Assembly (NCBI GenBank): GCA_002269645.1 | Contig: NIVC01000201.1 | Span: 310,001 to 374,000 of the forward strand | Source of the DNA: Macrostomum lignano | Taxonomy: Eukaryota | Length of the DNA stretch: 64,000 bases | Reading direction: 5' to 3' | Part shown: in pieces, positions 27,355 to 63,429 of the stretch | Position numbering within the stretch: position 1 is the stretch's first letter | Layout: every line of letters starts with the position of its first letter | The notes under the pieces: generated by a model | Database searches by the model: none | The model's input: only the letters and a program-made list of their open reading frames with translations | What the model was told of the DNA's origin: nothing | Program-made: the position numbers and the translations under genes

Positions 27355-29745
27355 TGCTTACTTTTACGTTTGAAATTGTGTATCTTTTATGGTGGCTCTT
27401 TAATGTTTGACATAGTGGCTCTTTTATGTTCTACATGGTGGCTCTTTTATGTTTGACCTGGTGGCACCTTAATGTAATGATGGCTCTTTAATGTTTGAAA
27501 TGGTGGCTCTTTAATATTTGACATGGTGGCTCTTTAATGTTTGACATGGTGGCTCTATAATGTTAGACATGGTGGCTCTTTAATGTTCGACATGGTGGCT
27601 CTTTAATGTTTGACATGGTGGCTCTTCAATATTCGACATGGTGGCTCTATAATGTTCGACATGGTGGCTCTTTAATGTTAGACATAATGGCTGTTAATTT
27701 TTGACATGGTGCCTCTTTAATGTTTGACATGGTGGTCCTTTTATGTTTGACATGGTGGCTCTTTTATGTTCGACATGATGGCTCTTTAATGTTTGACATG
27801 AAGTCACATATATGTTGGACATGGTGGCTCTTTAATGTTCGACATGGTGGCTCTTTAATGTTAGACATGGTGGCTCTTTAATGTTAGACATAGTGGCTCT
27901 TTAATGTTAGACATGGTGGCTCTTTAATGTTTGACATTAAGTCACATATATGTTGTGACATGGTGGCTCTTTAATGTTATACATGGTGGCTCTTTAATGT
28001 TAGACATGGTGACTCTTTAATGTTCGACATGATGGCTCTTTAATGTTTGAAATTGTGGCTCTTTAATGTTAGACATGGTGGCTCTTTAATGTTAGACATG
28101 GTGGCTCTTTTAGGTTTGACATGATGGCACTTTTATGTTTTGACATAGTGGCTCTTGAATGTTAGACATGGTGGCTCTTTAATGTTCGACATGATGGCTC
28201 TTTAATGTTTGACATGGTGGCTCTTTAATGTTAGACAAAGTGGCTTTTTATTGTTTGACATGGTGGCTCTTTTATGTTTGACATGGTGGCTCTTTTATGA
28301 TTGACATGGTGGCTCTTTTATGTTTGACATGGTGGCTCTTTTATGTTCGACATGATGGCTCTTTAATGTTTGACATGAAGTCACATATATGTTGGACATG
28401 GTGGCTCTTTAATGTTCGACATGGTGGCTCTTTAATGTTAGACATGGTGGCTCTTTAATGTTAGACATAGTGGCTCTTTAATGTTAGACATGGTGGCTCT
28501 TTAATGTTTGACATTAAGTCACATATATGTTGTGACATGGTGGCTCTTTTATGTTTGACATGGTGGCTCTTTAATGTTATACATGGTGGCTCTTTAATGT
28601 TAGACATGGTGACTCTTTAATGTTCGACATGATGGCTCTTTAATGTTTGAAATTGTGGCTCTTTAATGTTAGACATGGTGGCTCTTTTATGTTTGACATG
28701 GTGGCTCTTTTAGGTTTGACATGATGGCACTCTTATGTTTTGACATAGTGGCTCTTGAATGTTAGACATGGTGGCTCTTTAATGTTCGACATGATGGCTC
28801 TTTAATGTTTGACATGGTGGCTCTTTAATGTTAGACAAAGTGGCTTTTTATTGTTTGACATGGTGGCTCCTTTATGTTTGACATGGTGGCTCTTTTATGA
28901 TTGACATGGTGGCACTTTTATGTTTGACATGGTGGCTCTTTAATAGTAGACAAAGTGGCTCTTTAATGTTTGATATGATGGCTCTTTTATGTTTGACATG
29001 GTGGCTCTTTAATGTTTGACATGGTGGCTCTTTTATGTTGGACATGGTGGTTCTTTTATGTTCGACATGGTGGCTCTTTTATGCTTGACATGGTGGCTCT
29101 TTTCTGTTTGACATGGTAGCTCTTAAATGTTTGATATGGTAGCTCCTTAATGTTTGACATGGTAGCTCTTTTATGTTCAACATCGTGGCTCTTTATTGTT
29201 TGACATGGTGGCTCTTTAATGTTTAACCTGGTGGCTCTTTTATGTTTGACACGGTGGCTTTTAATGTCTGACATGGTGGCTCTTTTATGTTTTACATGGT
29301 GGCTCTTCTATGTTTGACATGGTGGCTCTTTAATGTTTAACCTGGTAGCTCTTTTATGTTTGACACGGCGGCTCTCTAATGTTTGACAAAGTGGCTATTT
29401 AATGTTCGAAATAGTGGCTCTTTAAAGTTTGACATAAAGTCACATATATGTTTGACATGGTGGCTCTTAAATGTTTGACATGGTGGCTCTTAAATGTTTG
29501 ACTTGGTGGCTCTTAAATGTTTGACATGGTGGCTCTTAAATGTTTGACATGGTGGCTCTTAAATGTTTGACATTGTGGCTCTTAAATGTTTGACATGGTG
29601 GCTTTTTAATCGTTGACATGGAGTCACGTATATATTTGACATAGTGCTTATTTTATGTTTGGCATGGTAACTCTTTTATATTTGAAATGTTGGCTCTTTA
29701 ATGTTCGACATGGTGGCTCTTCTATGTTTGACATTGCGCTTCTAT
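27355..29745 (+). repeat. 22 bp minisatellite array, about 2.4 kb
   Basis: Consensus GACATGGTGGCTCTTTAATGTTT, with recurring variant units such as GACATGAAGTCACATATATGTT. Confidence 0.95.
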
Positions 29746-30778
29746 TATGTTTAGCAGTTTTGTTGTGTTTTTAAGGTGTTTTGATAAAAAAATCTTTTTG
29801 CACTACTAATGATTCGAACCCAGGTCGCTACGTTGGCAGTCCAGTCTGTTCGGATCTAGGGTATCTCTTTTCAATTGAAGAACATGAATTGTGGCCCTTA
29901 TAATTCAATTCTTACTGCAAGTCAATTGAAGTAAAAAGTTATGACATAATCAATTTCTCAGTCAGCCAGTATCAGTCTCAATTTGAGTTAGCAATATTGG
30001 TTACGCAATTTAAATCAAGTCGTGTGTGCATTTCTTCGGCACTGTTTTCAACTTGTTGTGATGCAATCTTTATCACAATCAGAATTCAGCCAGTCAGTTT
30101 TTTCTCTAGCATTCTTACAATGAATTTTCGGTCGAAAGAGCTGCTTGACCTTTGCAAAAAAGCAGGTTTTTCGAATATTTAATCCCTTTAAAATTTAGCA
30201 ATTTCTTAGCCAAGATGCATGTACCGTCCCAGGAAAATTTCTGGTCAAATGGTCCAAGTTTGAAGAAAATCGGTTTAGCCAATTTTTCTGAAATCTATTG
30301 CATGTATACCTACCGACAGACTCACAAAAGGTTATTTGATTGCTATTATCTCCTTGAGATTTTTTATTAGAATTATATAGCATAAAAATTACACATTTGT
30401 ACAACGCAATGTAGTTCATCCGTAAGAATGCAGTGGTAAGTATTTAAATAAAGATAAGTAGACTTGCTACACAGAAAGCAAGGTTTATCTGTGAAAAGAA
30501 TAAAAATGGTCAGTTAAGTCATTTTTTAAACAGTAACCTAGAGATTAGTCAATACTAGCAATCTACGCCCCCCGTTGGGGCGCCAAAGAAATACAATACA
30601 CGTTTTTTAATAAGCTACATATATCCTTGAAATCTTAACAAATCTCCTGTCAAACCTTGTAAGCCTTGACATGTCAATAATTCCCCCCCACAAGCTTTAA
30701 CACATCAACTTCCCCCCTTGACATCTCAGCCTTGGAAGGCATTTTAGCCTTGGAAATCTAAAAATATCTGTCAACCTT

Positions 30779-30839
30779 CTAACCCTAACCCTAGCCTAAC
30801 CCTAACCCTACCCTAACCCTAACCCTAACCTAACCCTAA
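30779..30839 (-). repeat. Interstitial telomere-like (TTAGGG)n tract
   Basis: About 10 imperfect CCCTAA units on the plus strand. Confidence 0.85.
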
Positions 30840-31284
30840 AGCATTGAAATTTCAGTAATTCTCTCTGAGAGTCATTATAGCACTACTACAGCATTATAGC
30901 GATTCCCTGCAAGCCTCGACATCGTAGGGATTCCCAAATGAATCTCTTAAGTTCGACATGAAGCTTCTTCTATTTTTTACATTACGCTTTTTTTTATCAG
31001 CGCCCCCCCCCGTGGCGAGCCAACAAAGAATGCAATAAAAAATTGAGTAAAGTACATGAACTTTGAAGTAGCCTCTGACTTTTGCTTTGACATCTCAGAA
31101 ACCCCCCCCCCCCGTAATCTCAGTTATTCTCTGAGAGCCTTGACGTCTCAGTAATTCTCCCCAGCACAGCATTATAGCTTCATTTAATTTTTACATGACA
31201 CCCTTCATGTCTGACATGACGCTTCTTTTATTCTACCACGATGCTTCTTAATATTTTAAATAACACTTTCATTACTTTTTAAAT

Positions 31285-32480
31285 GAGGCTTCTATGATTT
31301 TTTCATGACGCTTCTATGATTTTTACATGACGCTTTTATGATTTTTTACATGACGCTTCTATGATTTTTTACATGACGCTTCTATGATTTTTTACATGAC
31401 GCTTCTATGATTGTTTACATGACGCTTCTATGATTTTTTACATGACGCTTCTATGATTGTTTACATGACGCTTCTATGATTGTTTACATGACGCTTCTAT
31501 GATTTTTTACATGACGCTTCTATTATTGTTTACATGACGCTTCTATGATTGTTTACATGACGCTTCTATGATTGTTTACATGACGCTTCTATGATTTTTT
31601 AAAAATAACGCTTCTATGATTTTTATATAACGCTTCTACGATTTTTTACATGGCGCTTCTATGATTGTTTACATGACGCTTCTATGATTTTTTAAATGAC
31701 GCTTCTATGATTGTTTACATGGCGCTTCTATGATTGTTTACATGACGCTTCTATGATTTTTTACATGACGCTTCTATAATTTTTTCATGACGCTGCTACG
31801 ATTTTTTACATGACGCTTCTATGATTGTTTACATGACGCTTTTATGATTTTTGTACATAACGCTTCTATGATTTTTTACAAGATGCTTCTATGATTTTTA
31901 CATGACGCTTCTATGATTGTTTACATGACGCTTCTATGATTGTTTACATGACGCTTCTATGATTGTTTACATGGCGCTTCTATGATTGTTTACATGACGC
32001 TTCTATGATTTTTTACATGGCGCTTCTATGATTTTTACTTGGCGCTTCTATGATTGTTTACATGACGCTTCTATGATTTTTTCATGACGCTGCTACGATT
32101 TTTTACATGACGCTTCTATGATTGTTTACATGACGCTTCTATGATTTTTTACATGACGCTTCTATGATTTTTTACATGACGCTTCTATGATTCATTACAT
32201 GACGCTTCTATGATTGTTTACATGACGCTTCTATGATTTTTTACATGAAGCTTCTATGATTGTTTACATGACGCTTCTATGATTTTTATATAACGCTTCT
32301 ACGATTTTTTACATGTCGCTTCTATGATTGTTTACATGATGCTTCTATGATTTTTTAAATGACGCTTCTATGATTGTTTACATGACGCTTCTATGATTTT
32401 TTAAATGACACTTCTATGATTGTTTACATGACGCTTCTATGATTTTTTACATGACGCTTCTACGATTTTTACATGACGAT
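31285..32480 (+). repeat. 21-22 bp minisatellite, array 1 (about 1.2 kb)
   Basis: Consensus ACATGACGCTTCTATGATT(G/T)TTT. Confidence 0.95.
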
Positions 32481-33327
32481 TCTTTTTAAAAAGTCTTTTA
32501 GTTTTCCTGACGTTAAAAAGCTTTAATTAAAAAAAATTATACTCTATGAAAGTTCGAACCATCGTTTCTGCATTTAGCAGTTCAGTCTGTTTACCTCTAG
32601 GCTAGCTCTCATCATTTTGATAACATTAAATTTTGCACTTATATAATTCAACACTTTAAAATCCAAGCATAGAGTAAATCACACGAAGCAGTTATGACAT
32701 AATCAGTTTTTCAGTCAGTCGGTATCAGTTAACAATATGGTTACGCAATTTAAATCAAGTCTGGTGCTACGCTTCCACACTGCATTTTCAATTCAAGTCG
32801 GAGTTACAATTCAGTTATGATGCAATCTATTTCAGAATCAGAATTCAACCAGTCAGTTTTTTCTCTAGCCTTCTTACAATGCATTTCAAGTCGAAAGAGC
32901 TGCTTGACCTTTGCAAAAAAGCATGTTTTTCGAATATTTAATGCCTTTAGCATCGAGCAATTTCTTAGCCACGATGCATGTACAGTCACGGGAAAATTTT
33001 TGATCGAACAGTGCAAGTTCGAACAAAATCGGTCCAGCCATTTTTTCTCTAATCGATCACATAGATAGATAGACACAGACAGACCATTTTTAGTATATAG
33101 GACTAGCAATCTACGCCCCCCGTTGGGGAGCCAAAGAAATGCAATACACGTTTTTTTAATAAGCTACATGTATCCTTGAAATCCTAAAAAATCTTCTGTC
33201 AAACCTTGTAAGCCTTGACATGTCAGTTATCCCCCCCCCACAAGCTTTAACATATCAACTTCCCCCCTTGACATCTCAGCAATGCCCCCAATAAGCCTTG
33301 GAAATCTAAAAATATCTGTCAACCTTC

Positions 33328-33381
33328 TAACCCTAACCCTAGCCTAACCCTAACCCTAACCCTAACCCTAACCTAACCCTA
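33328..33381 (-). repeat. Interstitial telomere-like (TTAGGG)n tract
   Basis: About 9 imperfect CCCTAA units, at the position equivalent to the tract in unit 1. Confidence 0.85.
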
Positions 33382-34239
33382 AAGCATTGAAATTTCAGTA
33401 ATTCTCTCTAAGAGTCATTATAGCACTACTACAGCATTATAGCGATTCCCTGCAAGCCTCAACATCGTAGGGATTCCCAAATGAATCTCTTAACTTCGAC
33501 ATGAAGCTTCTTTTATTTTTTACATTACGCTTTTTTATCAGCGATCCCTCCCCTGAGGAGGCATCAAATAATGTAATAAAAAGTTTTCAATAAACTACAT
33601 GTAGCTTCTGACTTTAGCCTTGAAATCTCATTTATACCCCGTGAGCCTTGACATCTCAGCTATTCCCCCCGTAAGCCTTGACATGTCAGCAATGGCCCCC
33701 ATAAACCTTGAAATCTAAAAAATCCCCTGTTAACCTTGAAACCCGATAAAATATAACCCTCAACCCACACCTGACCTAAACCTAACTTTAACCCAACATA
33801 AAGCCTTGAAATCTCAGCAATTCTTCTCCCCTAAGCCTTGACATTTTAGTGATTCCTTCTTTAAGAATAACAGCACTATAACGATTTCCACCAAGCTTTG
33901 ACATCGTAGCAATTCCCAAATGAATCTTTCAACTTCGACATGACTTTTCTTTTATGTATACATAGTGCTACTTTTATTTTTTACATGACTCTTCTTCTAT
34001 CAGCGCCCCCCCCCCGTGACATGAACTTTGAAGTAGCTTCTGACTTTTGCTTTGACATCTCAGAAACCCCCCCGTAATCTCAGTTATTCTCTGAGAGCCT
34101 TTACGTCTCAGTTTTTCTCCCCAGCACAGCATTATAATTGCATTTAATTTTTACATGAACCCTTCATGTCTGACATGACGTTTTTTATTCTACCGTGACG
34201 CTTCTTAATTTTTTAAATGACACTTTCATTAGTTTTTAA

Positions 34240-36665
34240 ATGAGGCTTCTATGATTTTTTCTTGACGCTTCTATGATTTTTACATGACGCTTCTATGATT
34301 TTTATATGACGCTTCTATGATTGTTTACATGACGCTTCTATGATTGTTTACATGACGCTTCTATGATTGTTTACATGACGCTTCTACGATTTTTACATGA
34401 CACTTCTATGATTGTTTACATGACGCTTCTATGATTTTTTACATGGCGCTTCTATGATTGTTTACATGACGCTTCTATGATTGTTTACATGACGCTTCTA
34501 TGATTGTTTACATGACGCTTCTACGATTTTTATATGACGCTTCTATGATTTTTTAAATGGCGCTTCAATGATTTTTTAATGACGCTTCTATGATTTTTAC
34601 ATGACGCTTCTATGATTTTTTACATGACGCTTCTATGATTGTTTACATGACGCTTCTATGATTGTTTACATGACGCTTCTATGATTGTTTACATGACGCT
34701 TCTATGATTGTTTACATGACGCTTCTATGATTGTTTACATGACGCTTCTATGATTGTTTACATGACGCTTTTATGATTTTTTGAATGACGCTTCTATGAT
34801 TTTTATATGACGCTTCTATGATTTTTTACATGACGCTTCTACGATTTTTATGACGCTTCTATGATTTTTTAATGACGCTTTTATGATTTTTAAATGACGC
34901 TTCTATTATTTTTTAATGACGCTTCTATGATTGTTTAAATGACGCTTCTATGATTTTTTACATGACTCTTCTATGATTTTTTAAATGACGCTTCTATTAT
35001 TTTTAATGACGCTTCTATGATTGTTTAAATGACGCTTCTATGATTGTTTACATGACGCTTCTATGATTGTTTACATGACGCTTTATGATTGTTTACATGA
35101 CGCTTCTATGATTGTTTACATGACGCTTCTATGATTGTTTACATGACGCTTCTAAGATTTTTTACATGACGCTTCTACGATTTTTTACATGACGCTTCTA
35201 TGATTGTTTACATGACGCTTCTATGATTTTTTGAATGACGCTTCTATGATTTTTATATGACGCTTCTATGATTTTTTACATGACGCTTCTATGATTGTTT
35301 ACATGACGCTTCTATGATTTTTATATGACGCTTCTATGATTTTTTAAATGACGCTTCTATGATTTTTATATGACGCTTCTATGATTTTTTACATGACGCT
35401 TCTATGATTTTTATATGACGCTTCTATGATTTTTAAATGACGCTTTATGATTTTTAAATGACGCTTCTATTATTTTTTAATGACGCTTCTATGATTGTTT
35501 AAATGACGCTTCTATGATTGTTTACATGACGCTTCTATGATTGTTTACATGACGCTTCTATGATTGTTTACATGACGCTTCTATGATTGTTTACATGACG
35601 CTTCTATGATTGTTTACATGACGCTTCTATGATTGTTTACATGACGCTTCTATGATTGTTTACATGACGCTTCTATAATTGTTTACATGACGCTTCTATG
35701 ATTGTTTACATGACGCTTCTATGATTTTTTACATGACGCTTCTATGATTTTTTACATGACACTTCTATGATTGTTTACATGACGCTTCTATGATTTTTAC
35801 ATGACTCTTCTATGATTTTTTAAATGACGCTTCTATATTTTTTACATGACGCTTCTATGATTGTTTAATGACGCTTCTATGATTGTTTACATGACGCTTC
35901 TATGATTGTTTACATGACGCTTTATGATTGTTTACATGACGCTTCTATGATTGTTTACATGACGCTTCTATGATTGTTTACATGACGCTTCTATGATTTT
36001 TTACATGACGCTTCTACGATTTTTACATGACGCTTCTATGATTGTTTACATGACGCTTCTATGATTTTTTAATGACGCTTCTATGATTTTTATATGACGC
36101 TTCTATGATTTTTTACATGACGCTTCTATGATTGTTTACATGACGCTTCTATGATTGTTTACATGACGCTTCTATGATTTTTTAATGACGCTTCTATGAT
36201 TTTTATATGACGCTTCTATGATTTTTACATGACGCTTCTACGATTTTTATATGACGCTTCTATGATTTTTTAATGACGCTTTATGATTTTTAAATGACGC
36301 TTCTATATTTTTTAATGACGCTTCTATGATTGTTTAAATGACGCTTCTATGATTGTTTACATGACGCTTCTATGATTTTTTACATGACGCTTCTATGATT
36401 GTTTGCATGACGCTTCTATGATTTTTTAAATGACGCTCTATGATTTTTATATGACGCTTCTATGATTTTTCACATGACGCTTCTATGATTGTTTACATGA
36501 CGCTTCTACGATTTTTTAAATGACGCATCTATGATTTTTATATGACGCTTCTATGATTTTTTAAATGACGCTTCTATGATTGTTTACATGACGCTTCTAT
36601 GATTTTTTACATGACGCTTCTATGATTTTGTAAATGACGCTTCTATGATTTTACATGACGCTTCT
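34240..36665 (+). repeat. 21-22 bp minisatellite, array 2 (about 2.4 kb)
   Basis: Same consensus as array 1. Confidence 0.95.
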
Positions 36666-37281
36666 TTTTAAAAAGTCTTTTAGTTTTCCTGACGTTGAAA
36701 AGCTTTAATTAAAAAAATTATACTCTATGAAAATTCGAACCATCGTCGCTGCATTTAGCAGTTCAGTCTGTTTACCTCTAGGCTAGCTCTCATCGTTTTG
36801 ATAATCAAAATTTGCACTTATATAATTCAACACTTGAAAATCCAAGCATAGAGTAAATCACACGAAGCAGTTATGACATAATCAGTTTCTCAGTCAGTCA
36901 GTATCATTAACAATATGGTTACGCAATTTAAATCAAGTCTGGTGCTACGCTTCCACACTGCATTTTCAATTCAAGTCGGAGTTACAATTCAGTTATGATG
37001 CAATTCTATTTCAGAGTCAGAATTCAACCAGTCAGTTTTTTCTCTAGCCTTCTTACAATGCATTTCAAGTCGAAAGAGCTGCTTGACCTTTGCAAAAAAG
37101 CATGTTTTTCGAATATTTAATGCCTTTAGCATCGAGAATTTCTTAGCCACGATGCATGTACAGTCACGGAAAATTTTTGATCGAACAGTGCAAGTTAACA
37201 AAATCGGTCCAGCCATTTTTTCTCTAATCGATCACATAGATAGATAGACACAGACAGACCATTTTTAGTATATAGGAAGGA

Positions 37282-40200
37282 CTAGCAATCTATGCCCCCC
37301 GTTGGGGAGCCAAAGAAATGCAATAGCTACACGTTTTTTTAATAAGCTACATGTATCCTTGAAATCTTAAAAAATCTCCTGTCAAACCTTGTAAGCCTTG
37401 ACATGTCAGTAATTCACAAGCTTTAATATAACTCCTTGATTACAATGACGCTTCTACGATTTTTACATGACGCTTCTATATAGCCTAATTACATGACGCT
37501 TCTATGATTGTTTCAGTAACTCTTCTATGAGTTTACATGACGCTTATACGATTGTGACAAGCCTGACATCTAGGATTTACATGAACGCTTCTATGATTTT
37601 TACATGACGCTTCTACGATTTTTACATGACGCTTCTATTTTTTACATGACCTCTATGAATCATACATGTAATATTTTTACATAACGCTTCTACATGATTG
37701 TTTACATGACGCTTCTGATTTAGTTTGATCTTTTTACATGACGCCTTGACATTTTACAGACTATTCTAATTTTACATGTCGCATGGCCTATGACCTTGAT
37801 CTGATTTTACACCTTGACTATATTCAACATGACCTTCCTATGATTTTTACATGACGCTTCTAGATTTTACATGCGCCTATTTACATCATGCTTCATGACT
37901 TTTATTCGACATGACGCTTTTATGATTACATGGCTACTTCTATGATTTTTACATGACGCTTCTTATGAACATGGCGCTTCTAGATTGTTTTAATGTACAT
38001 GATTTGAATGTACGCTTCTAGATTGTTTACATGACGTAATCTAGTTTACATGACGTTCTAGATTGTTTACATGACGCTTCTATGATTTTTTACATGACGC
38101 TTCATGATTTTTACATGACGCTTCTTTTTTCACCACGATTTCTATGATTTTACATGACGCTTCTATGATTTTTACATGACGCTTCTATGATTTTTTACAT
38201 TACGCTTCTATGATTTTTACATGACGCTTCTATGATTTTTACATGACGCTTCTATGATTGTTTCATGACGCTTCTATGATTGTTTACATGACGCTTCTAT
38301 GATTTTTACATGACGCTTCTATGATTGTTTACATGACGCTTCTATGATTTTTACATAACGCTTCTATGATTTTTACATGACGCTTCTATGATTTTTTACA
38401 TGACGCTTCTATGATTTTTACACGACGCTTCTATGATTGTTTACATGACGCTTCTATGATTTTTACATGACGCTTCTATGATTGTTTATATGACGCTTCT
38501 ATGATTGTTTACATGACGCTTCTATGATTGTTTCATGACGCTTCTATGATTTTTACATGACGCTTCTATGATTGTTTACATGACGCTTCTATGATTGTTT
38601 ACATGACGCTTCTATGATTTTTTTAAATAACTCTTTCTATGATTTTTAAATGACGCTTCTACGATTTTTTACATGACGCTTCTATGATTGTTTACATGAC
38701 GCTTCTATGATTTTTTACATGACGCTTCTATGATTGTTTACATGACGCTTCTATGATTGTTTACATGACGCTTCTATGATTGTTTACATGACGCATCTAT
38801 CATTTTTACATAACGCTTCTATGATTTTTACATGACGCTTCTACGATTTTTACATGACGCTTCAATGATTTTTTACATGACGCTACTATGATTTTTACAT
38901 GACGCTACTATGATTTTTTACATGACGCTTCTATGATTGTTTACATGACGCTTCTATGATTGTTTACATGACGCATCTATCATTTTTACATAACGCTTCT
39001 ATGATTTTTACATGACGCTTCTACGATTTTTACATGACGCTTCTATGATTTTTTACATGACGCTACTATGATTTTTTACATGACGCTTTGATGATTTTTT
39101 ACATGCCGCTTCTACGATTTTGGCAGGACGATTCTATGATTTTACATGACGCTTCTATGATTTTTTACATGACGCTTCTATGATTGTTTCACGACGCTTC
39201 TATGATTTTTACATGACGCTTCTATGATTGTTTACATTCTTCTATGCTTGTTTACATGACGCTTCTATGATTGTTTAAATGACGCTTGAATGATTGTTTA
39301 CATGACGCTTGAATGATTGTTTACATGACGCTTTTATGATTTTTACATGGCGCTTCTATGATTGTTTACATGACGCTTCTATGATTGTTTACATGACGCT
39401 TCTAGGATTGTTTACATGACGCTTCTAGGATTGTTTACATGACGCTTCTAGGATTGTTTACATGACGCTTCTATGATTGTTTCATGACGCTTCTATGATT
39501 TTTACATGACGCTTCAAGGATTTTTTACATGACGCTTCTACGATTTTGGCAGGACGATTCTATGATTTTACATGACGCTTCTATGATTTTTACATGACGC
39601 TTCTATGATTTTTTACATGACGCTTCTATGATTTTTACATGACGCTTCTATGATTTTTACATGACGCTTCTATGATTGTTTCATGACGCTTCTATGATTG
39701 TTTACATGACGCTTCTATGATTTTTACATGACGCTTCTATGATTGTTTACATGACGCTTCTATGATTTTTACATGACGCTTCTATGATTTTTACATGACG
39801 CTTCTATGATTTTTACATGACGCTTCTATGATTTTACATGACGCTTCTATGATTGTTTACATGACGCTTCTATGATTTTTTACATGACGCTTCTATGATT
39901 TTTACATGACGCTTCTATGATTTTTACATGACGCTTCTATGATTGTTTCATGACGCTTCTATGATTGTTTACATGACGCTTCTATGATTTTTACATGACG
40001 CTTCTATGATTGTTTACATGACGCTTCTATGATTTTTACATGACGCTTCTATGATTTTTACATGACGCTTCTATGATTTTTTACATGACGCTTCTATGAT
40101 TTTTACACGACGCTTCTATGATTGTTTACATGACGCTTCTATGATTTTTACATGACGCTTCTATGATTGTTTATATGACGCTTCTATGATTGTTTACATG

Positions 40201-43200
40201 ACGCTTCTATGATTGTTTCATGACGCTTCTATGATTTTTACATGACGCTTCTATGATTTTTACATGACGCTTCTATGATTGTTTACATGACGCTTCTATG
40301 ATTTTTTTAAATAACTCTTTCTATGATTTTTAAATGACGCTTCTACGATTTTTTACATGACGCTTCTTTGATTGTTTACATGACGCTTCTATGATTTTTT
40401 ACATGACGCTTCTATGATTGTTTACATGACGCTTCTATGATTGTTTACATGACGCTTCTATGATTGTTTACATGACGCATCTATCATTTTTACATAACGC
40501 TTCTATGATTTTTACATGACGCTTCTACGATTTTTACATGACGCTTCAATGATTTTTTACATGACGCTACTATGAATTTTACATGACGCTACTATGATTT
40601 TTTACATGACGCTTCTACGATTGTTTACATGACGCTTCTATGATTGTTTACATGACGCATCTATCATTTTTACATAACGCTTCTATGATTTTTACATGAC
40701 GCTTCTACGATTTTTACATGACGCTTCTATGATTTTTTACATGACGCTACTATGATTTTTACATGACGCTACTATGATTTTTACATGACGCTACTATGAT
40801 TTTTACATGACGCTTTTATGATTTTTTACATGACGCTTTGATGATTTTTTACATGACGCTTCTACGATTTTGGCAGGCCGATTCTATGATTTTACATGAC
40901 GCTTCTATGATTTTTTACATGACGCTTCTATGATTGTTTCACGACGCTTCTATGATTTTTACATGACGCTTCTATGATTGTTTACATTCTTCTATGCTTG
41001 TTTACATGACGCTTCTATGATTGTTTAAATGACGCTTGAATGATTGTTTACATGACGCTTGAATGATTGTTTACATGACGCTTCAAGGATTTTTTACATG
41101 ACGCTTCTACCATTTTGGCAGGACGATTCTATGATTTTACATGACGCTTCTATGATTTTTACATGACGCTTCTATGATTTTTTACATTACGCTTCTATGA
41201 TTTTTACATGACGCTTCTATGATTTTTACATGACGCTTCTATGATTGTTTCATGACGCTTCTATGATTGTTTACATGACGCTTCTATGATTTTTACATGA
41301 CGCTTCTATGATTGTTTACATGACGCTTCTATGATTTTTACATGACGCTTCTATGATTTTTACATGACGCTTCTATGATTTTTACATGACGCTTCTATGA
41401 TTTTTTACATGACGCTTCTATGATTTTTACACGACGCTTCTATGATTGTTTACATGACGCTTCTATGATTTTTACATGACGCTTCTATGATTGTTTATAT
41501 GACGCTTCTATGATTGTTTACATGACGCTTCTATGATTGTTTCATGACGCTTCTATGATTTTTACATGACGCTTCTATGATTTTTACATGACGCTTCTAT
41601 GATTGTTTACATGACGCTTCTATGATTTTTTTAAATAACTCTTTCTATGATTTTTAAATGACGCTTCTACGATTTTTTACATGACGCTTCTATGATTGTT
41701 TACATGACGCTTCTATGATTTTTACATGACGCTTCTATGATTGTTTACATGACGCTTCTATGATTGTTTACATGACGCTTCTATGATTGTTTACATGACG
41801 CATCTATCATTTTTACATAACGCTTCTATGATTTTTACATGACGCTTCTACGATTTTTACATGACGCTTCAATGATTTTTTACATGACGCTACTATGATT
41901 TTTACATGACGCTACTATGATTTTTTACATGACGCTTCTATGATTGTTTACATGACGCTTCTATGATTGTTTACATGACGCATCTATCATTTTTACATAA
42001 CGCTTCTATGATTTTTACATGACGCTTCTACGATTTTTACATGACGCTTCTATGATTTTTACATGACGCTACTATGATTTTTACATGACGCTACTATGAT
42101 TTTTACATGACGCTACTATGATTTTTACATGACGCTTTTATGATTTTTTACATGACGCTTTGATGATTTTTTACATGACGCTTCTACGATTTTGGCAGGA
42201 CGATTCTATGATTTTACATGACGCTTCTATGATTTTTACATGACGCTTCTATGATTTTTTACATTACGCTTCTATGATTTTTACATGACGCTTCTATGAT
42301 TTTTACATGACGCTTCTATGATTGTTTCATGACGCTTCTATGATTGTTTACATGACGCTTCTATGATTTTTACATGACGCTTCTATGATTGTTTACATGA
42401 CGCTTCTATGATTTTTACATGACGCTTCTATGATTTTTACATGACGCTTCTATGATTTTTTACATGACGCTTCTATGATTTTTACACGACGCTTCTATGA
42501 TTGTTTACATGACGCTTCTATGATTTTTACATGACGCTTCTATGATTGTTTATATGACGCTTCTATGATTGTTTACATGACGCTTCTATGATTGTTTCAT
42601 GACGCTTCTATGATTTTTACATGACGCTTCTATGATTTTTACATGACGCTTCTATGATTGTTTACATGACGCTTCTATGATTTTTTTAAATAACTCTTTC
42701 TATGATTTTTAAATGACGCTTCTACGATTTTTTTACATGACGCTTCTATGATTGTTTACATGACGCTTCTATGATTTTTTACATGACGCTTCTATGATTG
42801 TTAACATGACGCTTCTATGATTGTTTACATGACGCTTCTATGATTGTTTACATGACGCATCTATCATTTTTACATAACGCTTCTATGATTTTTACATGAC
42901 GCTTCTACGATTTTTACATGACGCTTCAATGATTTTTTACATGACGCTACTATGATTTTTTACATGACGCTACTATGATTTTTTACATGACGCTTCTATG
43001 ATTGTTTACATGACGCTTCTATGATTGTTTACATGACGCATCTATCATTTTTACATAACGCTTCTATGATTTTTACATGACGCTTCTACGATTTTTACAT
43101 GACGCTTCTATGATTTTTTACATGACGCTTCTATGATTGTTTACATGACGCTTCTATGATTGTTTACATGACGCTACTATGATTTTTACATGACGCTTCA

Positions 43201-46200
43201 TGACGCTTTGATGATTTTTACATGACGCTTCTACGATTTTGGCAGGACGATTCTATGATTTTACATGACGCTTCTATGATTTTTTACATGACGCTTCTAT
43301 GATTGTTTCACGACGCTTCTATGATTTTTACATGACGCTTCTATGATTGTTTACATGACGCTTCTATGATTGTTTACATGACGCTTCTATGATTGTTTAC
43401 ATGACGCTTCTATGATTTTTACATGACGCTTCTATGATTGTTTACATGACGCTTCTATGATTTTTACATGACGCTTCTATGATTTTTACATGACGCTTCT
43501 ATGATTTTACATGACGCTTCTATGATTTTTACATGACGCTTCTATGATTTTTACATGACGCTTCTATGATTTTTACATGACGCTTCTATGATTTTTACAT
43601 GACGCTTCTATGATTGTTTACATGACGCTTCTATGATTGTTTACATGACGCTTCTATGATTTTTACATGACGCTTCTATGATTGTTTACATGACGCTTCT
43701 ATGATTTTTACATGACGCTTCTATGATTTTTAATGACGCTTCTATGATTTTTACATGACGCTTCTATGATTTTTACATGACGCTTCTATGATTGTTTACA
43801 TGACGCTTCTATGATTTTTACATGACGCTTCTATGATTGTTTACATGACGCTTCTATGATTGTTTACATGACGCTTCTATGATTGTTTACATGACGCTTC
43901 TATGATTTTTACATGACGCTTCTATGATTTTTACATGACGCTTCTATGATTTTTACATGACGCTTCTATGATTTTTACATACGCTTCTATGATTTTTACA
44001 TGACGCTTCTATGATTTTTTACATGACGCTTCTATGATTGTTTACATGACGCTTCTATGATTTTTACATGACGCTTCTATGATTGTTTACATGACGCTTC
44101 TATGATTTTTACATGACGCTTCTATGATTTTTTACATGACGCTTCTATGATTTTTACATGACGCTTCTATGATTTTTTACATGACGCTTCTATGATTTTT
44201 ACATGACGCTTCTATGATTTTTACATGACGCTACTATCATTTTTACATGACGCTTCTATGATTTTTACATGACGCTTCTATGATTTTTACATGACGCTTC
44301 TATGATTTTTACATGACGCTACTATGATTTTTACATGACGCTTCTATGATTTTTACATGACGCTTATGATTTTTTACATGACGCTTCTATGATTTTACAT
44401 GACGCTTATGATTTTTTACATGACGCTTCTATGATTTTTACATGACGCTTCTATGATTGTTTACATGACGCTTCTATGATTTTTACATGACGCTTCTATG
44501 ATTGTTTACATGACGCTTCTATGATTTTTACATGACGCTTCTATGATTGTTTACATGACGCTTCTATGATTGTTTACATGACGCTTCTATGATTTTTACA
44601 TGACGCTTATGATTTTTACATGACGCTTGATGATTGTTTACATGACGCTTCATGATTTTTTACATGACGCTTCTACGATTTTGGCAGGACGATTCTATGA
44701 TTTTACATGACGCTTCTATGATTTTTACATGACGCTTCTATGATTTTTTACATTACGCTTCTATGATTTTTACATGACGCTTCTATGATTTTTACATGAC
44801 GCTTCTATGATTGTTTCATGACGCTTCTATGATTGTTTACATGACGCTTCTATGATTTTTACATGACGCTTCTATGATTGTTTACATGACGCTTCTATGA
44901 TTTTTACATGACGCTTCTATGATTTTTACATTCTATGATTTTACATGACGCTTCTATGATTTTTACATGACGCTTCTATGATTTTTACATGACGCTTCTA
45001 TGATTTTTACATGACGCTTCTATGATTTTTACATGACGCTTCTATGATTGTTTATGACGCTTCTATGATTGTTTACATGACGCTTCTATGATTTTTACAT
45101 GACGCTTCTATGATTGTTTACATGACGCTTCTATGATTTTTACATGACGCTTCTATGATTTTTAATGACGCTTCTATGATTTTTTACATGACGCTTCTAT
45201 GATTTTTACATGACGCTTCTATGATTGTTTACATGACGCTTCTATGATTTTTACATGACGCTTCTATGATTGTTTACATGACGCTTCTATGATTGTTTAC
45301 ATGACGCTTCTATGATTGTTTACATGACGCTTCTATGATTTTTACATGACGCTTCTATGATTTTTACATGACGCTTCTATGATTTTTACATGACGCTTCT
45401 ATGATTTTTACATGACGCTACTATGATTTTTTACATGACGCTTCTATGATTGTTTACATGACGCTTCTATGATTGTTTACATGACGCTTCTATGATTGTT
45501 TACATGACGCTTCTATGATTTTTACATGACGCTTCTATGATTTTTACATGACGCTTCTATGATTTTTACATGACGCTTCTATGATTTTTACATGACGCTA
45601 CTATGATTTTTACATGACGCTACTATGATTTTTACATGACGCTACTATGATTTTTACATGACGCTTATGATTTTTTACATGACGCTTCTATGATTTTTAC
45701 ATGACGCTTCTATGATTTTACATGACGCTTCTATGATTTTACATGACGCTTCTATGATTTTTACATGACGCTTCTATGATTTTTACATGACGCTTCTATG
45801 ATTTTTACATGACGCTTCTATGATTGTTTACATGACGCTTCTATGATTGTTTACATGACGCTTCTATGATTGTTTACATGACGCTTGATGATTGTTTACA
45901 TGACGCTTTATGATTGTTTACATGACGCTTCTATGATTTTTACATGACGCTTCTATGATTGTTTACATGACGCTTCTATGATTGTTTACATGACGCTTCT
46001 ATGATTGTTTACATGACGCTTCTAGGATTGTTTACATGACGCTTCTATGATTGTTTACATGACGCTTCTATGATTGTTTACATGACGCTTCTATGATTGT
46101 TTACATGACGCTTCATGATTTTTTACATGACGCTTCTATGATTTTTACATGACGCTTTATGATTTTACATGGCGCTTCTATGATTGTTTACATGACGCTT

Positions 46201-47642
46201 CTATGATTGTTTACATGACGCTTCTATGATTGTTTACATGACGCTTCTATGATTGTTTACATGACGCTTCTAGGATTGTTTACATGACGCTTCTATGATT
46301 GTTTACATGACGCTTCTATGATTGTTTACATGACGCTTCAAGGATTTTTACATGACGCTTCTACGATTTTGGCAGGACGATTCTATGATTTTACATGACG
46401 CTTCTATGATTTTTACATGACGCTTCTATGATTTTTACATGGACGCTTCTATGATTTTTACATGACGCTTCTATGATTTTTACATGACGCTTCTATGATT
46501 GTTTACATGACGCTTCTATGATTGTTTACATGACGCTTCTATGATTGTTTACATGACGCTTCTAGGATTGTTTACATGACGCTTCTATGATTGTTTACAT
46601 GACGCTTCTATGGATTTTTACATGACGCTTCTACATGACGATTCTATGATTTTACATGACGCTTCTAGATTGTTTACATGACGCTTCTAGATTGTTTACA
46701 TGACGCTTCTACATGACGCTTCTATGATTTTTTACATGACGCTTCAAGGATTTTTTACATGACGCTTCTACGATTTTGGCAGGACGATTCTATGATTTTA
46801 CATGACGCTTCTATGATTTTTACATGACGCTTCTATGATTTTTTACATGACGCTTCTATGATTCTATGATTTTTACATGACGCTTCTATGATTTTTACAT
46901 GACGCTTCTATGATTGTTTCATGACGCTTCTATGATTGTTTACATGACGCTTCTATGATTGTTTACATGACGCTTCTATGATTTTTACATGACGCTTCTA
47001 TGATTGTTTACATGACGCTTCTATGATTTTTACAGGACGCTTCTTTTTAAAAAGTCTTTTAGTTTTCCTGACGTTGAAAAGCTTTAATTAAAAAAATTAT
47101 ACTCTATGAAAATTCGAACCATCGTCTCTGCATTTAGCAGTTCAGTTTGTTCACCTCTAGGCTAGTTCTTATCGTTTTGATAACATCAAATTTTGCACTT
47201 ATATAATTCAACACTTTAAAATCCAAGCAGTTATGACATAATCAATATCCAGTCAGTCAGTATCAGTTAACAATATGGTTACGCAATCTAAATCAAGTCT
47301 GGTGCTACGCTTCCACACTGCATTTTCAATTCAAGTCGGAGTTACAATTCAGTTATGACACAATCTATTTCGGAATCAGAATTCAACCAGTCAGTTTTTT
47401 CTCTAGCATTCTTACAATGCATTTCAAGTCGAAAAGTTTGCTTGACCTTTGCAAAAAAGCATGTTTTTCGAATATTTAATGCCTTTAGCATCAAGCAATT
47501 TCTTAGCCACGATGCATGTACCGTCACGGGAAAATTTCTGATCGAACAGTGCAAGTCTCATGAAAATCGGTTAAGCCATTTTTTCTCCAATCGATTACAA
47601 GCAAGCAAGCAAGATTTTCATTTTTAGTATTTAGGAAGAAGA
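37282..47642 (-). mobile_element. Non-autonomous Helitron, unit 3
   Basis: CTAG at 37282-37285 abuts unit 2. Its 5' end A|TCTTCTTCCTAAATACTAAAAATG is at 47642, so the trimer sits in an A|T target. Confidence 0.8.
37440..47045 (+). repeat. 21-22 bp minisatellite, array 3 (about 9.6 kb) with higher-order structure
   Basis: Same consensus. Recurring variant blocks include TTGGCAGGACGATTCTATG and AAATAACTCTTTCTATG. Confidence 0.95.
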
Positions 47643-59827: not shown

Positions 59828-61923
59828 CTTAGCGGCTGCTGGTTTGATGTCCGTGGAGATCTGGCGGGCAGCTGTCTCAGAGCAGGGAGCGGCAAGCGGG
59901 GAGGACTTCTTCTAGACTCAACCGGAGAGTTTATGCCGAGGGCGCGGTGAGATGGAGAAAAGGGGAAGAGGCTGGGGGTTGCCGAGGATGGGATGGGATG
60001 GGAGAGGCGGCCGTATTGATTCTGAACAGGGCAGGGCGGGTCGGAGCTGCGAGAAGGCGGAGGAGGGCGGGAAGGAAGAGACGGGAAGAGAAAACTTTTG
60101 CGGCGGGGCAGAAGCTCTCGGTGGCTCTCAAGAGAGGCAGAGCGCTGGAACAGCTACTCAATTCTGCATCTCCTCCCAGCCTCCCTGTCCGCAGCCCGGG
60201 TAGTGCGGATTTCATTGGCTCCAGCGCGCCTCCCCCTTTCCTACTCCGGCGGCTTCCTCATCATCCGCGGACAGAGCTGAGCAGAGTGCTCAGATTTCTT
60301 CCCTATCCCGCCGCCGGCAGCGCACAGCCAACTCCGACGTACTTCTATCGGCCGCGCGCAGCGATCGACTTGGGCTGCAGGCAAGCCGGAGTGCGGAGGA
60401 GGCGGAGAAACTGAAAACTCACTGAAAACTGGGGAGTCAGACGGCTTATCCGCCTCGCATCCTTCGTGCACTGCGACTCGGCAGCTGCAGGCTCTGAGGA
60501 TTTGCTGCTCAGGATGTTGGGATTTTTGGCAAGAAAATTGAGGAAGCTGCGAGCGGATCTGTTGGCAGATCAGCATATCTGTACCAATATTTGTAGCTCA
60601 TTTTTCGTAATTTATAAATAGAATTAATTTGAATTATTGTCGGTCTATGCAAACTTATATGTAAGTGCAGATAAAAAGTTACCAAAAGACCAAGGGCCCG
60701 TTCTATAAAGCCATCGTAAGATAAGATCGTAAAAGTACGTACGATCGAACTTACGCTACGACAGCTTTACAGTACGACCCCCAAGTCAAGTTCATCAAAG
60801 TCATTTTAAATACCAGACTCATTCGTTTCTGTGCATTTCCCTCATGCTCAAGCTGCCCTGTCAAGTGCCAGTTAAGTCTTCGCAGATTAGACTGAATTTT
60901 ATGCACTTTAGAGATGGCTATGTTCAACTTGGGTTGGATATCGGGGCTACAATTGTACTTGACAAAACACCGACATTGTCACACAACCGGCGAGAGGCGT
61001 TACTGCCCATTCCGCCGACTCCCCATCAGCAGGCACACAAGCGCGCGGATACGTCCGCCCCAGTCATATGCACCGACACACTCACACGGGAGTGCACAGC
61101 GGCCCTGACTTTAGTTATCGTTAGGCATGTACACTTCACTGTGCCTGGCACTCAAGGCCTTAAATATGCACGAGCAGAGCCAAGCCGAGATTGCTATTTA
61201 GCCCCAACTGACTGCACTTGACTGGCCCAGGCTGCCTACGCTCGTAAAAGCGCCGCAAAAGAAAGGTGATTTCTGTATATAGAGGTGATTTTACAGTCCC
61301 ATCGAGTTGCATCTAAGTACCTTTTATTATACATGTAGTTGCATGCAAAAATGAAACAATAATTTGGGAATGTCAAACTACGGGATGAGCATTTGACATT
61401 TGCCTACCAATACAGGACAACCATGCCCTCACCATTTTGCTCCGAAAATATTAAAAAGTTCCTATCCTGTCGAAAGTAACCTTTCTGAGACAAAGTGTTT
61501 AGTTCGACTTAGCAGTCCCTGATGAAACTCATAATTATCTGTAGATCAAAGGATCCACTACAAGATTTGATGCCTAATTGCAGAGACAGGAACTAAGTCT
61601 GCAAGAAAGATTTATCAGACATTTTTCCTATAATTATCTAGAGACTCGTACCTGCTCCCGCTGATGAGCAGATAGTTTCAGTGTCGCTCTGATCTCGAAA
61701 TCAAAGCATAATTAGAAGTCTTTTTAATCGCGTGTGCGCGACTTCATTCCGGAAGGAGACGTGAACTCTGGGATGACTGAATGTAAGCGATAGCTTACTG
61801 ATAGTAAAGCTATTTGAACATGGCGCGAATTCCTCACATGGTGGACTAGAAAATGTCGCCATGTGCAAGGGCGCATAAATAGCAGTTCCACTCAGTTGGC
61901 TAGAGGTGGAGCCGACCTCGTGT

Positions 61924-61976
61924 GGCTATGACTGACTGACGAGGGCAAACAAGCCCGAAACCGGTCTCAGTCTGCC
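61924..61976 (+). ncRNA. Type I hammerhead ribozyme, copy 1
   Basis: Stem I GACTGA/TCAGTC, core CTGACGA, stem II GGGC-AAACAA-GCCC, GAAA, palindromic CCGG, and GTC cleavage triplet (cut predicted after 61966). Confidence 0.9.
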
Positions 61977-62313
61977 CCGCATGGTTCGATTCCCACTTTT
62001 AGCCGCTGATATCTGGTTCCCTGCAGAGAGCGTACCCGCTGGCCACCCACAGGGTGAGAGCCGAAAAAAATGTGCGCACAAGACGTACAAGTGTACCCTC
62101 CGGCCGCCTAAAAATAGAAGGGCCGAGAAGGGAGAACTGGCAGGAGTGCCAGTCTTTGAAAAGCGGGAAGATGTAAGCGATAGCTTACTGATAGTAAAGC
62201 TATTTGAACATGGCGCGAATTCCTCACATGGTGGACTAGAAAATTTCGCCATGTGCAAGGGCGCATAAATAGCAGTTCCACTCAGTTGGCTAGAGGTGGA
62301 GCCGACCTCGTGT

Positions 62314-62366
62314 GGCTATGACTGACTGACGAGGGCAAACAAGCCCGAAACCGGTCTCAGTCTGCC
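62314..62366 (+). ncRNA. Type I hammerhead ribozyme, copy 2
   Basis: Identical to copy 1; predicted cut after 62356. Confidence 0.9.
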
Positions 62367-62703
62367 CCGCATGGTTCGATTCCCACTTTTAGCCGCTGAT
62401 ATCTGGTTCCCTGCAGAGAGCGTACCCGCTGGCCACCCACAGGGTGAGAGCCGAAAAAAATGTGCGCACAAGACGTACAAGTGTACCCTCCGGCCGCCTA
62501 AAAATAGAAGGGCCGAGAAGGGAGAACTGGCAGGAGTGCCAGTCTTTGAAAAGCGGGAAGATGTAAGCGATAGCTTACTGATAGTAAAGCTATTTGAACA
62601 TGGCGCGAATTCCTCACATGGTGGACTAGAAAATTTCGCCATGTGCAAGGGCGCATAAATAGCAGTTCCACTCAGTTGGCTAGAGGTGGAGCCGACCTCG
62701 TGT

Positions 62704-62756
62704 GGCTATGACTGACTGACGAGGGCAAACAAGCCCGAAACCGGTCTCAGTCTGCC
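62704..62756 (+). ncRNA. Type I hammerhead ribozyme, copy 3
   Basis: Identical to copy 1; predicted cut after 62746. Confidence 0.9.
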
Positions 62757-63093
62757 CCGCATGGTTCGATTCCCACTTTTAGCCGCTGATATCTGGTTCC
62801 CTGCAGAGAGCGTACCCGCTGGCCACCCACAGGGTGAGAGCCGAAAAAAATGTGCGCACAAGACGTACAAGTGTACCCTCCGGCCGCCTAAAAATAGAAG
62901 GGCCGAGAAGGGAGAACTGGCAGGAGTGCCAGTCTTTGAAAAGCGGGAAGATGTAAGCGATAGCTTACTGATAGTAAAGCTATTTGAACATGGCGCGAAT
63001 TCCTCACATGGTGGACTAGAAAATTTCGCCATGTGCAAGGGCGCATAAATAGCAGTTCCACTCAGTTGGCTAGAGGTGGAGCCGACCTCGTGT

Positions 63094-63146
63094 GGCTATG
63101 ACTGACTGACGAGGGCAAACAAGCCCGAAACCGGTCTCAGTCTGCC
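63094..63146 (+). ncRNA. Type I hammerhead ribozyme, copy 4
   Basis: Identical to copy 1; predicted cut after 63136. Confidence 0.9.
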
Positions 63147-63429
63147 CCGCATGGTTCGATTCCCACTTTTAGCCGCTGATACTGAAGCATCACAAATATT
63201 TTAGCTGTGCGGACTGGTTCCGTCATTTTACAAGCGCAGATATATGTATCTTCACTACGCCACTTTGATAAATTACCAATTTGAAATGCCACGATTTTGT
63301 GGCCGCTTGACTCCCTAAATTATTTTAAAATGAAATACGCCTTGGATAATAAACGCACCAAAATGAAAAGTGTATTTCATTAATTACCAAGCCAAGTCGC
63401 TAAGACATCTGCAGGCTATGAGCCCAGTG

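Follow-up and report, generated by a model that had tools for sequence, protein, structure and literature searches.

Why should a hammerhead ribozyme whose helix III amounts to a six-nucleotide palindrome recur several times in a row, and can one copy cleave without another? The window analysed here (the whole 64,000-nucleotide stretch of the Macrostomum lignano genome) raises this question at 61957-61966, where GAAACCGGTC forms the 3' part of a type I hammerhead. The first-pass annotation answered both halves at once: cleavage probably needs a dimer, and a switch by which multimers are cut while monomer circles are protected explains the tandem layout. These two claims fared differently. The reading we prefer, with a probability of about two in three, is a tandem non-coding LTR element with a dimer-gated type I hammerhead in each LTR, whose transcript would be cut to a 390-nt circle and copied from a tRNA-Glu primer by a helper.

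The hammerhead motif and its helix III

The ribozyme features are as follows.

61919..61983, plus strand: type I hammerhead copy 1 (folding, Rfam E-value scan and shuffle control)
61927-29, plus strand: UAU bulge in stem I of copy 1
61930-35/61967-72, plus strand: stem I of copy 1, GACUGA/UCAGUC (folding)
61936-42, plus strand: core CUGACGA of copy 1 (CTGACGA at 61936)
61943-46/61953-56, plus strand: stem II of copy 1, GGGC/GCCC, with loop II AAACAA
61957..61966, plus strand: GAA, the helix III palindrome ACCGGU (61960-65) and C17, with the predicted cut after 61966
62347-62356, plus strand: GAAACCGGTC of hammerhead copy 2, in LTR 2
62737-62746, plus strand: GAAACCGGTC of hammerhead copy 3, in LTR 3
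63127-63136, plus strand: GAAACCGGTC of hammerhead copy 4, in LTR 4

Judged from its sequence, GAAACCGGTC with its surroundings is a type I hammerhead motif, and self-cleavage 3' of C17 is predicted: the core CUGANGA / GAAA / UH is present, as are stems I and II, with stem I open-ended. The four copies in the window follow a 390-bp period, and 100 shuffles gave no match. Rfam at its gathering threshold had no match in the window; an E-value scan of one unit returned Hammerhead_HH9 (E 1.4e-06) with 32.7 bits, below the gathering score of 52, in an alignment that deletes the model's whole helix III loop, so that ACC abuts GGU.

The structural description in the first-pass annotation was borne out. 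The sequence at 61957-61966 agrees that helix III is only the palindrome ACCGGU. The lone A-U pair was said to be too unstable in a monomer, and ViennaRNA gives A15.1-U16.1 a probability of 3.5e-7; two copies were said to form an ACCGGU/ACCGGU helix, and the self-duplex comes to -8.3 kcal/mol. Stem I does run past the UAU bulge through GGC/GCC and is even longer than claimed, continuing in the predicted fold with CGUGU/GCAUG and then a 12-bp outer stem. The 122-nt rod that results takes up the 3' half of the repeat; its folding energy of -56.4 kcal/mol (z -5.3) was equalled by none of 200 shuffles.

Does cleavage then depend on a dimer? Folding models make this a likely proposition. In a secondary-structure model, the active fold costs +9.4 to +12.5 kcal/mol in the monomer and +9.4 in the circle, against +1.0 to +4.3 for the double hammerhead, a range covering 7 of 7 two-LTR transcripts tried. 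ViennaRNA predicts that the GACUGACUG repeat slips in the monomer, C3-U4-G5 of the core entering a GACUG/CGGUC helix. Two separate rods cofold into a double hammerhead at -115.9, compared with 2 x -56.4. In that fold, for which Forster 1988 and Lunse 2017 are cited, helix III has at most one or two base pairs and a palindromic loop, as ACCGGU does.

There is also precedent; the papers cited here by PMC number or DOI are drawn on in excerpt. Short helices of this kind need a second copy, which is thought to spare monomer circles (PMC4209133), and the axolotl HHR_Amex1, with one pair and a palindromic tetraloop, reached 6% cleavage in 1 h on its own and far more when dimeric (PMC7229834). Since the idea that multimers cleave and circles are spared is already in print (PMC4209133), the dimer switch is not new, and the novelty of the concept itself is near zero.

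What dimer dependence lacks is covariation in helix III. Among 41 genomic ribozyme-pattern matches, the loop is CCGG in 32 and non-palindromic in 9, with no case of a different palindrome. The dimer helix therefore shows no covariation, nor was any compensatory change in helix III found among these matches. ACCGGT is retained in 34 of the 38 family-A LTRs examined. As a tetraloop is palindromic by chance once in 16, the palindrome is informative solely within its hammerhead context. The free ensemble of a long two-LTR transcript consists of two local rods, with the inter-copy helix III at about 1%, a share that reaches 52-66% solely for a transcript trimmed at both ends; because the first rod forms 390 nt ahead of the second, a kinetic trap is possible. 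The energy model leaves out loop-loop tertiary contacts, which could rescue the monomer.

Element anatomy and genomic copies

The four ribozymes lie in a larger structure, with the following parts.

61777..61781, plus strand: 5' target-site duplication CTGAA, present as a single CTGAA at empty sites L155 and L156
61782..62011, plus strand: LTR 1, 230 bp, TGT...ATA, with fixed ends common to solo copies elsewhere
61874..61879, plus strand: CATAAA box, TATA-like or weak polyA-signal-like, of putative function
61897..61909, plus strand: A-box-like TGGCTAGAGGTGG, which doubles as the 5' strand of the outer stem
61983..61993, plus strand: B-box-like GGTTCGATTCC, then TTTT at 61997-62000; putative Pol III element
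62012..62171, plus strand: internal region 1, 160 bp, non-coding, folding at z -3.8
62014..62023, plus strand: primer-binding site TGGTTCCCTG, a 10-nt complement of the tRNA-Glu 3' end
62158..62171, plus strand: polypurine tract GAAAAGCGGGAAGA, abutting the next LTR
62172..62401, plus strand: LTR 2 with hammerhead copy 2
62402..62561, plus strand: internal region 2
62562..62791, plus strand: LTR 3 with hammerhead copy 3
62792..62951, plus strand: internal region 3
62952..63181, plus strand: LTR 4 with hammerhead copy 4
63182..63186, plus strand: 3' target-site duplication CTGAA

The 390-bp unit is thus a 230-bp LTR followed by a 160-bp non-coding core, and the array comprises four LTRs and three cores. 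The LTR terminus is TA rather than CA. TGGTTCCCTG starts 2 nt past the LTR and matches the last 10 nt of the genome's tRNA-Glu, CCA included; GAAAAGCGGGAAGA has purines at 13 of 14 positions (p about 0.01). No stop-free frame above 129 aa was found in the element, and no DNA similarity to the coding elements compared. The LTRs at the window locus are 99.6-100% alike, by which measure the element is young. The features that define a TRIM in PMC4717578 were all found: a length below 1500 bp (a single L2I1 element, the copy at C3053, has 620 bp), two direct terminal repeats, a primer site, a polypurine tract, no retrotransposon protein, and at least two copies or solo LTRs whose target duplications differ from one another. 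We regard the LTR anatomy, the unusual side of the element and one that the first-pass annotation did not notice, as close to certain. It also leaves the claim that a dimer switch explains the tandem layout unsupported: the array is a tandem TRIM, which would require no ribozyme switch, and more than one ribozyme occurs at only 3 of 33 family loci.

As to the surroundings, a minus-strand frame at 63500-63975 matches the aminoacyl-tRNA editing domain PF04073 (E 2.7e-14), with the element about 300 bp downstream on the opposite strand. Arrays of a 23-bp satellite, up to 570 copies, occupy 27389-47044 and include short telomere-like (CTAACC)n tracts at 30779-30839 and 33327-33382. A bacterial promoter scan was empty, which is irrelevant to an animal element; that the genome is an animal's is borne out by 86 matches to the Wnt family.

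Searching the genome with one unit gave at least 46 matches, 39 of them hammerhead-family rows on 33 contigs and 7 weaker rows; 40 of 41 candidates were scored, so these counts are lower bounds. Among the matches listed, the whole unit is present at just 3 loci, the remainder covering its first 216-231 bases. The 160-bp core occurs solely between two LTRs (6 copies, 3 loci), and the layouts are four LTRs with three cores in the window, two with one (C3053) and three with two (C4118), plus 5 solo LTRs. We count 8 independent insertions with 8 different flanking 5-mers: the 5-bp duplication is perfect in seven, one of which sits in a TAGT microsatellite, and the eighth has 4 of 5 bases. Another 25 loci (L014, L016-L039) share their flanks and were counted separately, as one solo copy multiplied inside a larger repeat: here a solo LTR that has lost its TTTT through a short 3' deletion lies in a 60-bp minisatellite, itself part of a repeated element at least 3 kb long, with which the LTR multiplied.

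Two homologous regions (L155, L156) lack the element and each have a single CTGAA, which proves the target duplication at the window locus; one empty form of the site is also spanned by a contig from run X19. The insertion is polymorphic between homologous regions. The empty-site homologue L156 (C891) is also without about 206 bp directly after the target site (window 63182-63387).

How did the array arise? Position 74 of the LTR is G in LTR 1 (61855) and T in LTRs 2-4 (62245, 62635, 63025), and it is G in the full-length LTRs at 7 of 7 other loci compared. The T variant common to LTRs 2-4 points to growth of the array in place, and growth by LTR-LTR recombination fits position 74 better than one multi-turn copying event. 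Such recombination is the likely route and would also give solo LTRs; template switching may be an alternative.

Following up the weak unit matches revealed an older family (281 candidates, 40 scored), which consists of decayed solo LTRs about 220 bp long that end in TGTGA...TCACA. Its 5' half is unrelated to that of the young family, but it has the same ribozyme, the GGTTCGA box (B box) and TTTT, and most aligned copies also have the CATAAA box. Its target duplications are mostly imperfect: 5/5 at L092, 4/5 at L101, L104 and L137, and worse elsewhere. The outer stem is preserved between the two families by GC>CG and GC>AU changes, which count as one event between families and have mixed shuffle controls (for pairs changed on both sides, 190 of 500 shuffles were as high). 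At the base of stem II the older family has mostly A.A and the young family a canonical G10.1-C11.1 pair. No complete two-LTR copy of the older family was found, the 3 pattern matches all being without a primer site.

Putative transcripts, possible promoters and candidate helpers

The sequencing runs consist of assembled contigs and are either guessed to be RNA or of unknown kind; none is on record as RNA. Each of the 6 RNA-guessed runs examined, which come under 5 study codes, has one 420-nt contig (390 + 30) that bridges both LTR/core junctions. Such a loop would be expected equally from a circle, a multimer, a terminally redundant RNA or DNA; with the RNA type of the runs guessed, the element is apparently transcribed. 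In the same six runs no contig extends over the element flanks and no loose ends occur at the LTR termini, whereas contigs of X16 and X19 break at the termini with flank sequence. This contrast is a weak hint, as uncovered parts prove nothing. Position 74 is T in four of the RNA-guessed runs and G in two, so that part of this sequence may stem from the window array.

Five of the six loop contigs begin one base past the predicted cut. We rejected these starts as evidence of cleavage: contigs of X1 and X11 branch toward the 3'-deleted solo form (L014, L016-L039), a branch to truncated copies at 61997/61998 that explains both, and X6 begins elsewhere.

The order of elements in the LTR is CATAAA, the A-box-like stretch, the ribozyme, a perfect B-box-like 11-mer and TTTT, which brings to mind the schistosome Sm-alpha repeats. 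From this layout, the promoter may be Pol II from CATAAA or Pol III through the A and B boxes. The A-box-like TGGCTAGAGGTGG fits only the Helenus wording TRGCY..YGG and is not kept in the older family, and both box-like stretches also pair within the RNA rod. ARAGORN called no tRNA in the element. A tRNA-Ile origin of the D-arm-like stretch was considered and dropped, the pattern matching only the hammerhead element itself.

The older family also appears in these runs. At L071, L077 and L083 (~1382-1570), an older-family LTR is broken off inside the hammerhead, and it starts a 1.8-1.9-kb contig in the RNA-guessed runs X1, X10 and X11 and a 313-nt contig in X2. These starts fall at LTR positions 33-108, around the CATAAA box at 88, and the LTR at these loci may be used as a promoter.

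Which proteins could copy and integrate the element? The genome has 49 matches to a 14-nt form of the primer site and 0 to the control; several of the 49 lie behind LTRs of elements with protease, RT and RNase H. We viewed 20 of the 49 matches with 1.5-kb flanks and also examined 28 longer stretches (up to 10 kb), of which 7 were taken at sites among those 20. One coding tRNA-Glu family (RT, RNase H, protease) has a 4-bp duplication at the only copy with both ends; for a second, the far end was not found in the stretches examined. Elements of the Gypsy type at L143 and L152-L153, about 14-17 kb long, have a tRNA-Glu primer site that several kb separate from the first long frame; their C362 copy has a 4-bp duplication. 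Non-coding tRNA-Glu families have a 4-bp duplication (L172) or a 5-bp one (L146, L166), the latter two belonging, with L159 and L170, to an LTR family of about 1.3 kb with TA...CA ends. A non-coding family with 5-bp duplications makes it likely that a suitable integrase has been at work in the genome. No autonomous partner with 5-bp duplications was found among the tRNA-Glu elements examined, and these families had no sequence in common with the hammerhead element. Downstream of a tRNA-Glu LTR element, L177 and L178 have frames for a type B DNA polymerase and endonuclease VII and are Polinton-like.

Proposed mechanism and comparison with known systems

In the mechanism we propose, a transcript running from LTR to LTR would hold exactly two ribozyme copies, which would swap strands into a double hammerhead, cut twice and free a 390-nt unit. 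A host ligase would then close this unit to a circle; RtcB ligation in vitro is reported for other retrozymes (PMC7229834). tRNA-Glu would prime reverse transcription by a helper, one turn of the circle giving a normal minus strand, and integration would go through a borrowed LTR-retrotransposon integrase. The gate would spare transcripts of solo LTRs and the one-ribozyme circle.

A bolder extension, to which we give somewhat less than an even chance, sees an independently evolved animal LTR retrozyme in which a Penelope/SINE-type type I hammerhead crossed to the LTR pathway, with its tRNA priming and its integrase, and the ribozyme counts LTRs. Cleavage would fire when two LTR copies meet, in a full-length transcript or in co-packaged RNAs; closed circles would stay intact, their long rod being unable to swap strands without a linking change, and solo-LTR transcripts likewise. 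The palindrome at the tip of the long rod would then be analogous to a retroviral dimer-initiation hairpin.

Could the element move without using its ribozyme? It might be an ordinary Helenus-like TRIM, its LTR having once captured a hammerhead-bearing SINE-like module, that moves via linear, terminally redundant RNA, with the ribozyme a passenger or nearly silent and the long rod in a packaging or stability role. Such a history accounts for every LTR feature without cleavage, and SINE insertion into an LTR is what Kojima proposes as the origin of such TRIMs (PMC10886601); it also sits well with a monomer predicted to be off, a long transcript that favours local rods and the predominance of A.A at the base of stem II in the older family. 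We nevertheless consider it unlikely, given that the full catalytic core, the palindrome and UAU/AAACAA are common to two families with unrelated 5' halves and that the young family has the canonical G10.1-C11.1 pair.

Less probable again is a ribozyme that acts as a monomer, through contacts between loop II and the bulge, a very long stem I or a protein, the palindrome being inherited and no switch at work. Most tested invertebrate type I hammerheads do cleave well as monomers (PMC7761336, PMC7229834), but these have a 2-bp helix III, and the one-pair, palindromic Amex1 shows its 6% monomer cleavage despite tertiary motifs (PMC7229834). The palindrome without covariation would suit this explanation; the 9-12 kcal/mol that the active monomer fold costs here would not. 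Finally, a Penelope-like element might move the repeat as a non-LTR retrozyme or satellite of the usual animal kind, its primer site and purine tract being due to chance; the type I hammerhead, the 390-bp period and the tandem layout would fit that class (PMC7229834; 10.64898/2026.07.22.740005). But both ends are fixed, the duplications are of 5 bp, the core is always enclosed by two LTRs, solo LTRs have duplications of their own and only 2 nt separate the LTR from the tRNA-Glu site. This reading is very improbable, the target-duplication survey and the empty sites having largely refuted it.

The dimer-gated LTR element that we prefer would matter in several ways. The excerpts of PMC7229834, PMC7761336, PMC11722881 and 10.64898/2026.07.22.740005 divide retrozymes into plant LTR elements with type III hammerheads and animal non-LTR elements with type I; the hammerhead element breaks this split, in which the animal kind is moved by Penelope-like elements. 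The dimer switch would gain a concrete job, that of setting a two-LTR transcript apart from both solo LTRs and the circle. Young, small (620 bp), polymorphic and apparently transcribed, the element may offer a handy system for the reverse transcription of circular RNA by animal LTR machinery. If the ribozyme does count LTRs, similar elements may hide among animal repeats filed as non-LTR retrozymes or as ribozyme-free TRIMs. Libraries of animal TRIMs would be worth searching for hammerheads, as would hammerhead repeats for primer sites.

Among known systems, plant LTR retrozymes (PMC4918200, PMC7761336) come closest in way of life: they too are non-coding, with a hammerhead in each LTR, a primer site, a polypurine tract, a target duplication, solo LTRs and a unit-length RNA set by two cut sites, the last being predicted here. 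Their hammerhead is of type III and is blocked by complementary sequence, whereas here it is of type I with a one-pair, palindromic helix III; they use tRNA-Met and make 4-bp duplications, compared with tRNA-Glu and 5 bp; and their LTRs of 300-400 bp and units of about 700 nt are larger than the 230 bp and 390 nt found here. Cervera, Urbina and de la Pena 2016 (PMC4918200) detected neither primer site nor purine tract in the hammerhead repeats of metazoans.

Animal non-LTR retrozymes and the amphibian satellite 2 (PMC7229834; 10.64898/2026.07.22.740005) share the type I hammerhead and tandem units (150-450 bp), and in axolotl Amex1 helix III is just as weak and palindromic, and a dimer is required (PMC7229834). 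As a class, however, they are defined in these excerpts by the absence of LTR, primer site and purine tract, all three of which the hammerhead element has, and they have longer duplications and Penelope-like mobilisation, unlike its 5-bp duplications. ASBVd, the newt satellite and the minimal hammerheads of Penelope elements likewise have a short palindromic helix III completed by a second copy, for which protection of monomer circles has been proposed (PMC4209133, PMC6466107); what differs here is that the two copies come from the two LTRs of one retrotransposon transcript.

In build, the element resembles Helenus / TRIMp3 (Kojima 2024, PMC10886601), TRIMs that measure 311-1263 bp, have TRGCY..YGG and GGTTC boxes within their LTRs and a primer site for a tRNA (in some bivalves tRNA-Glu), and also occur as solo LTRs and in tandem arrays. 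Both box wordings fit the young family, and the older one keeps box B and not box A. In animals, Helenus makes 4-bp duplications and the hammerhead element 5-bp ones; in the latter no tRNA was called and the A-box-like stretch is not conserved. Flatworms are absent from the host list in the excerpt of PMC10886601, which reports no ribozyme in Helenus, 'hammerhead' appearing there only in a reference; GAAACCGGTC has 0 matches in the part of its supplement searched, where line breaks may hide some. The tandem-array TRIMs of Gao et al. 2016 (PMC4717578) form LnIn-1 arrays inside one duplication pair, as do L4I3, L3I2 and L2I1 here, but are plant elements without ribozymes.

The literature matches listed, with Repbase, Dfam and subscription journals outside the search, include no animal LTR element with a hammerhead, and in the literature compared such a combination has so far been confined to plants, which would make its occurrence in an animal LTR element new. 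On the models presented here, the element would work like a plant LTR retrozyme, is built as a tandem TRIM and carries an amphibian-type dimer hammerhead, its working part being predicted.
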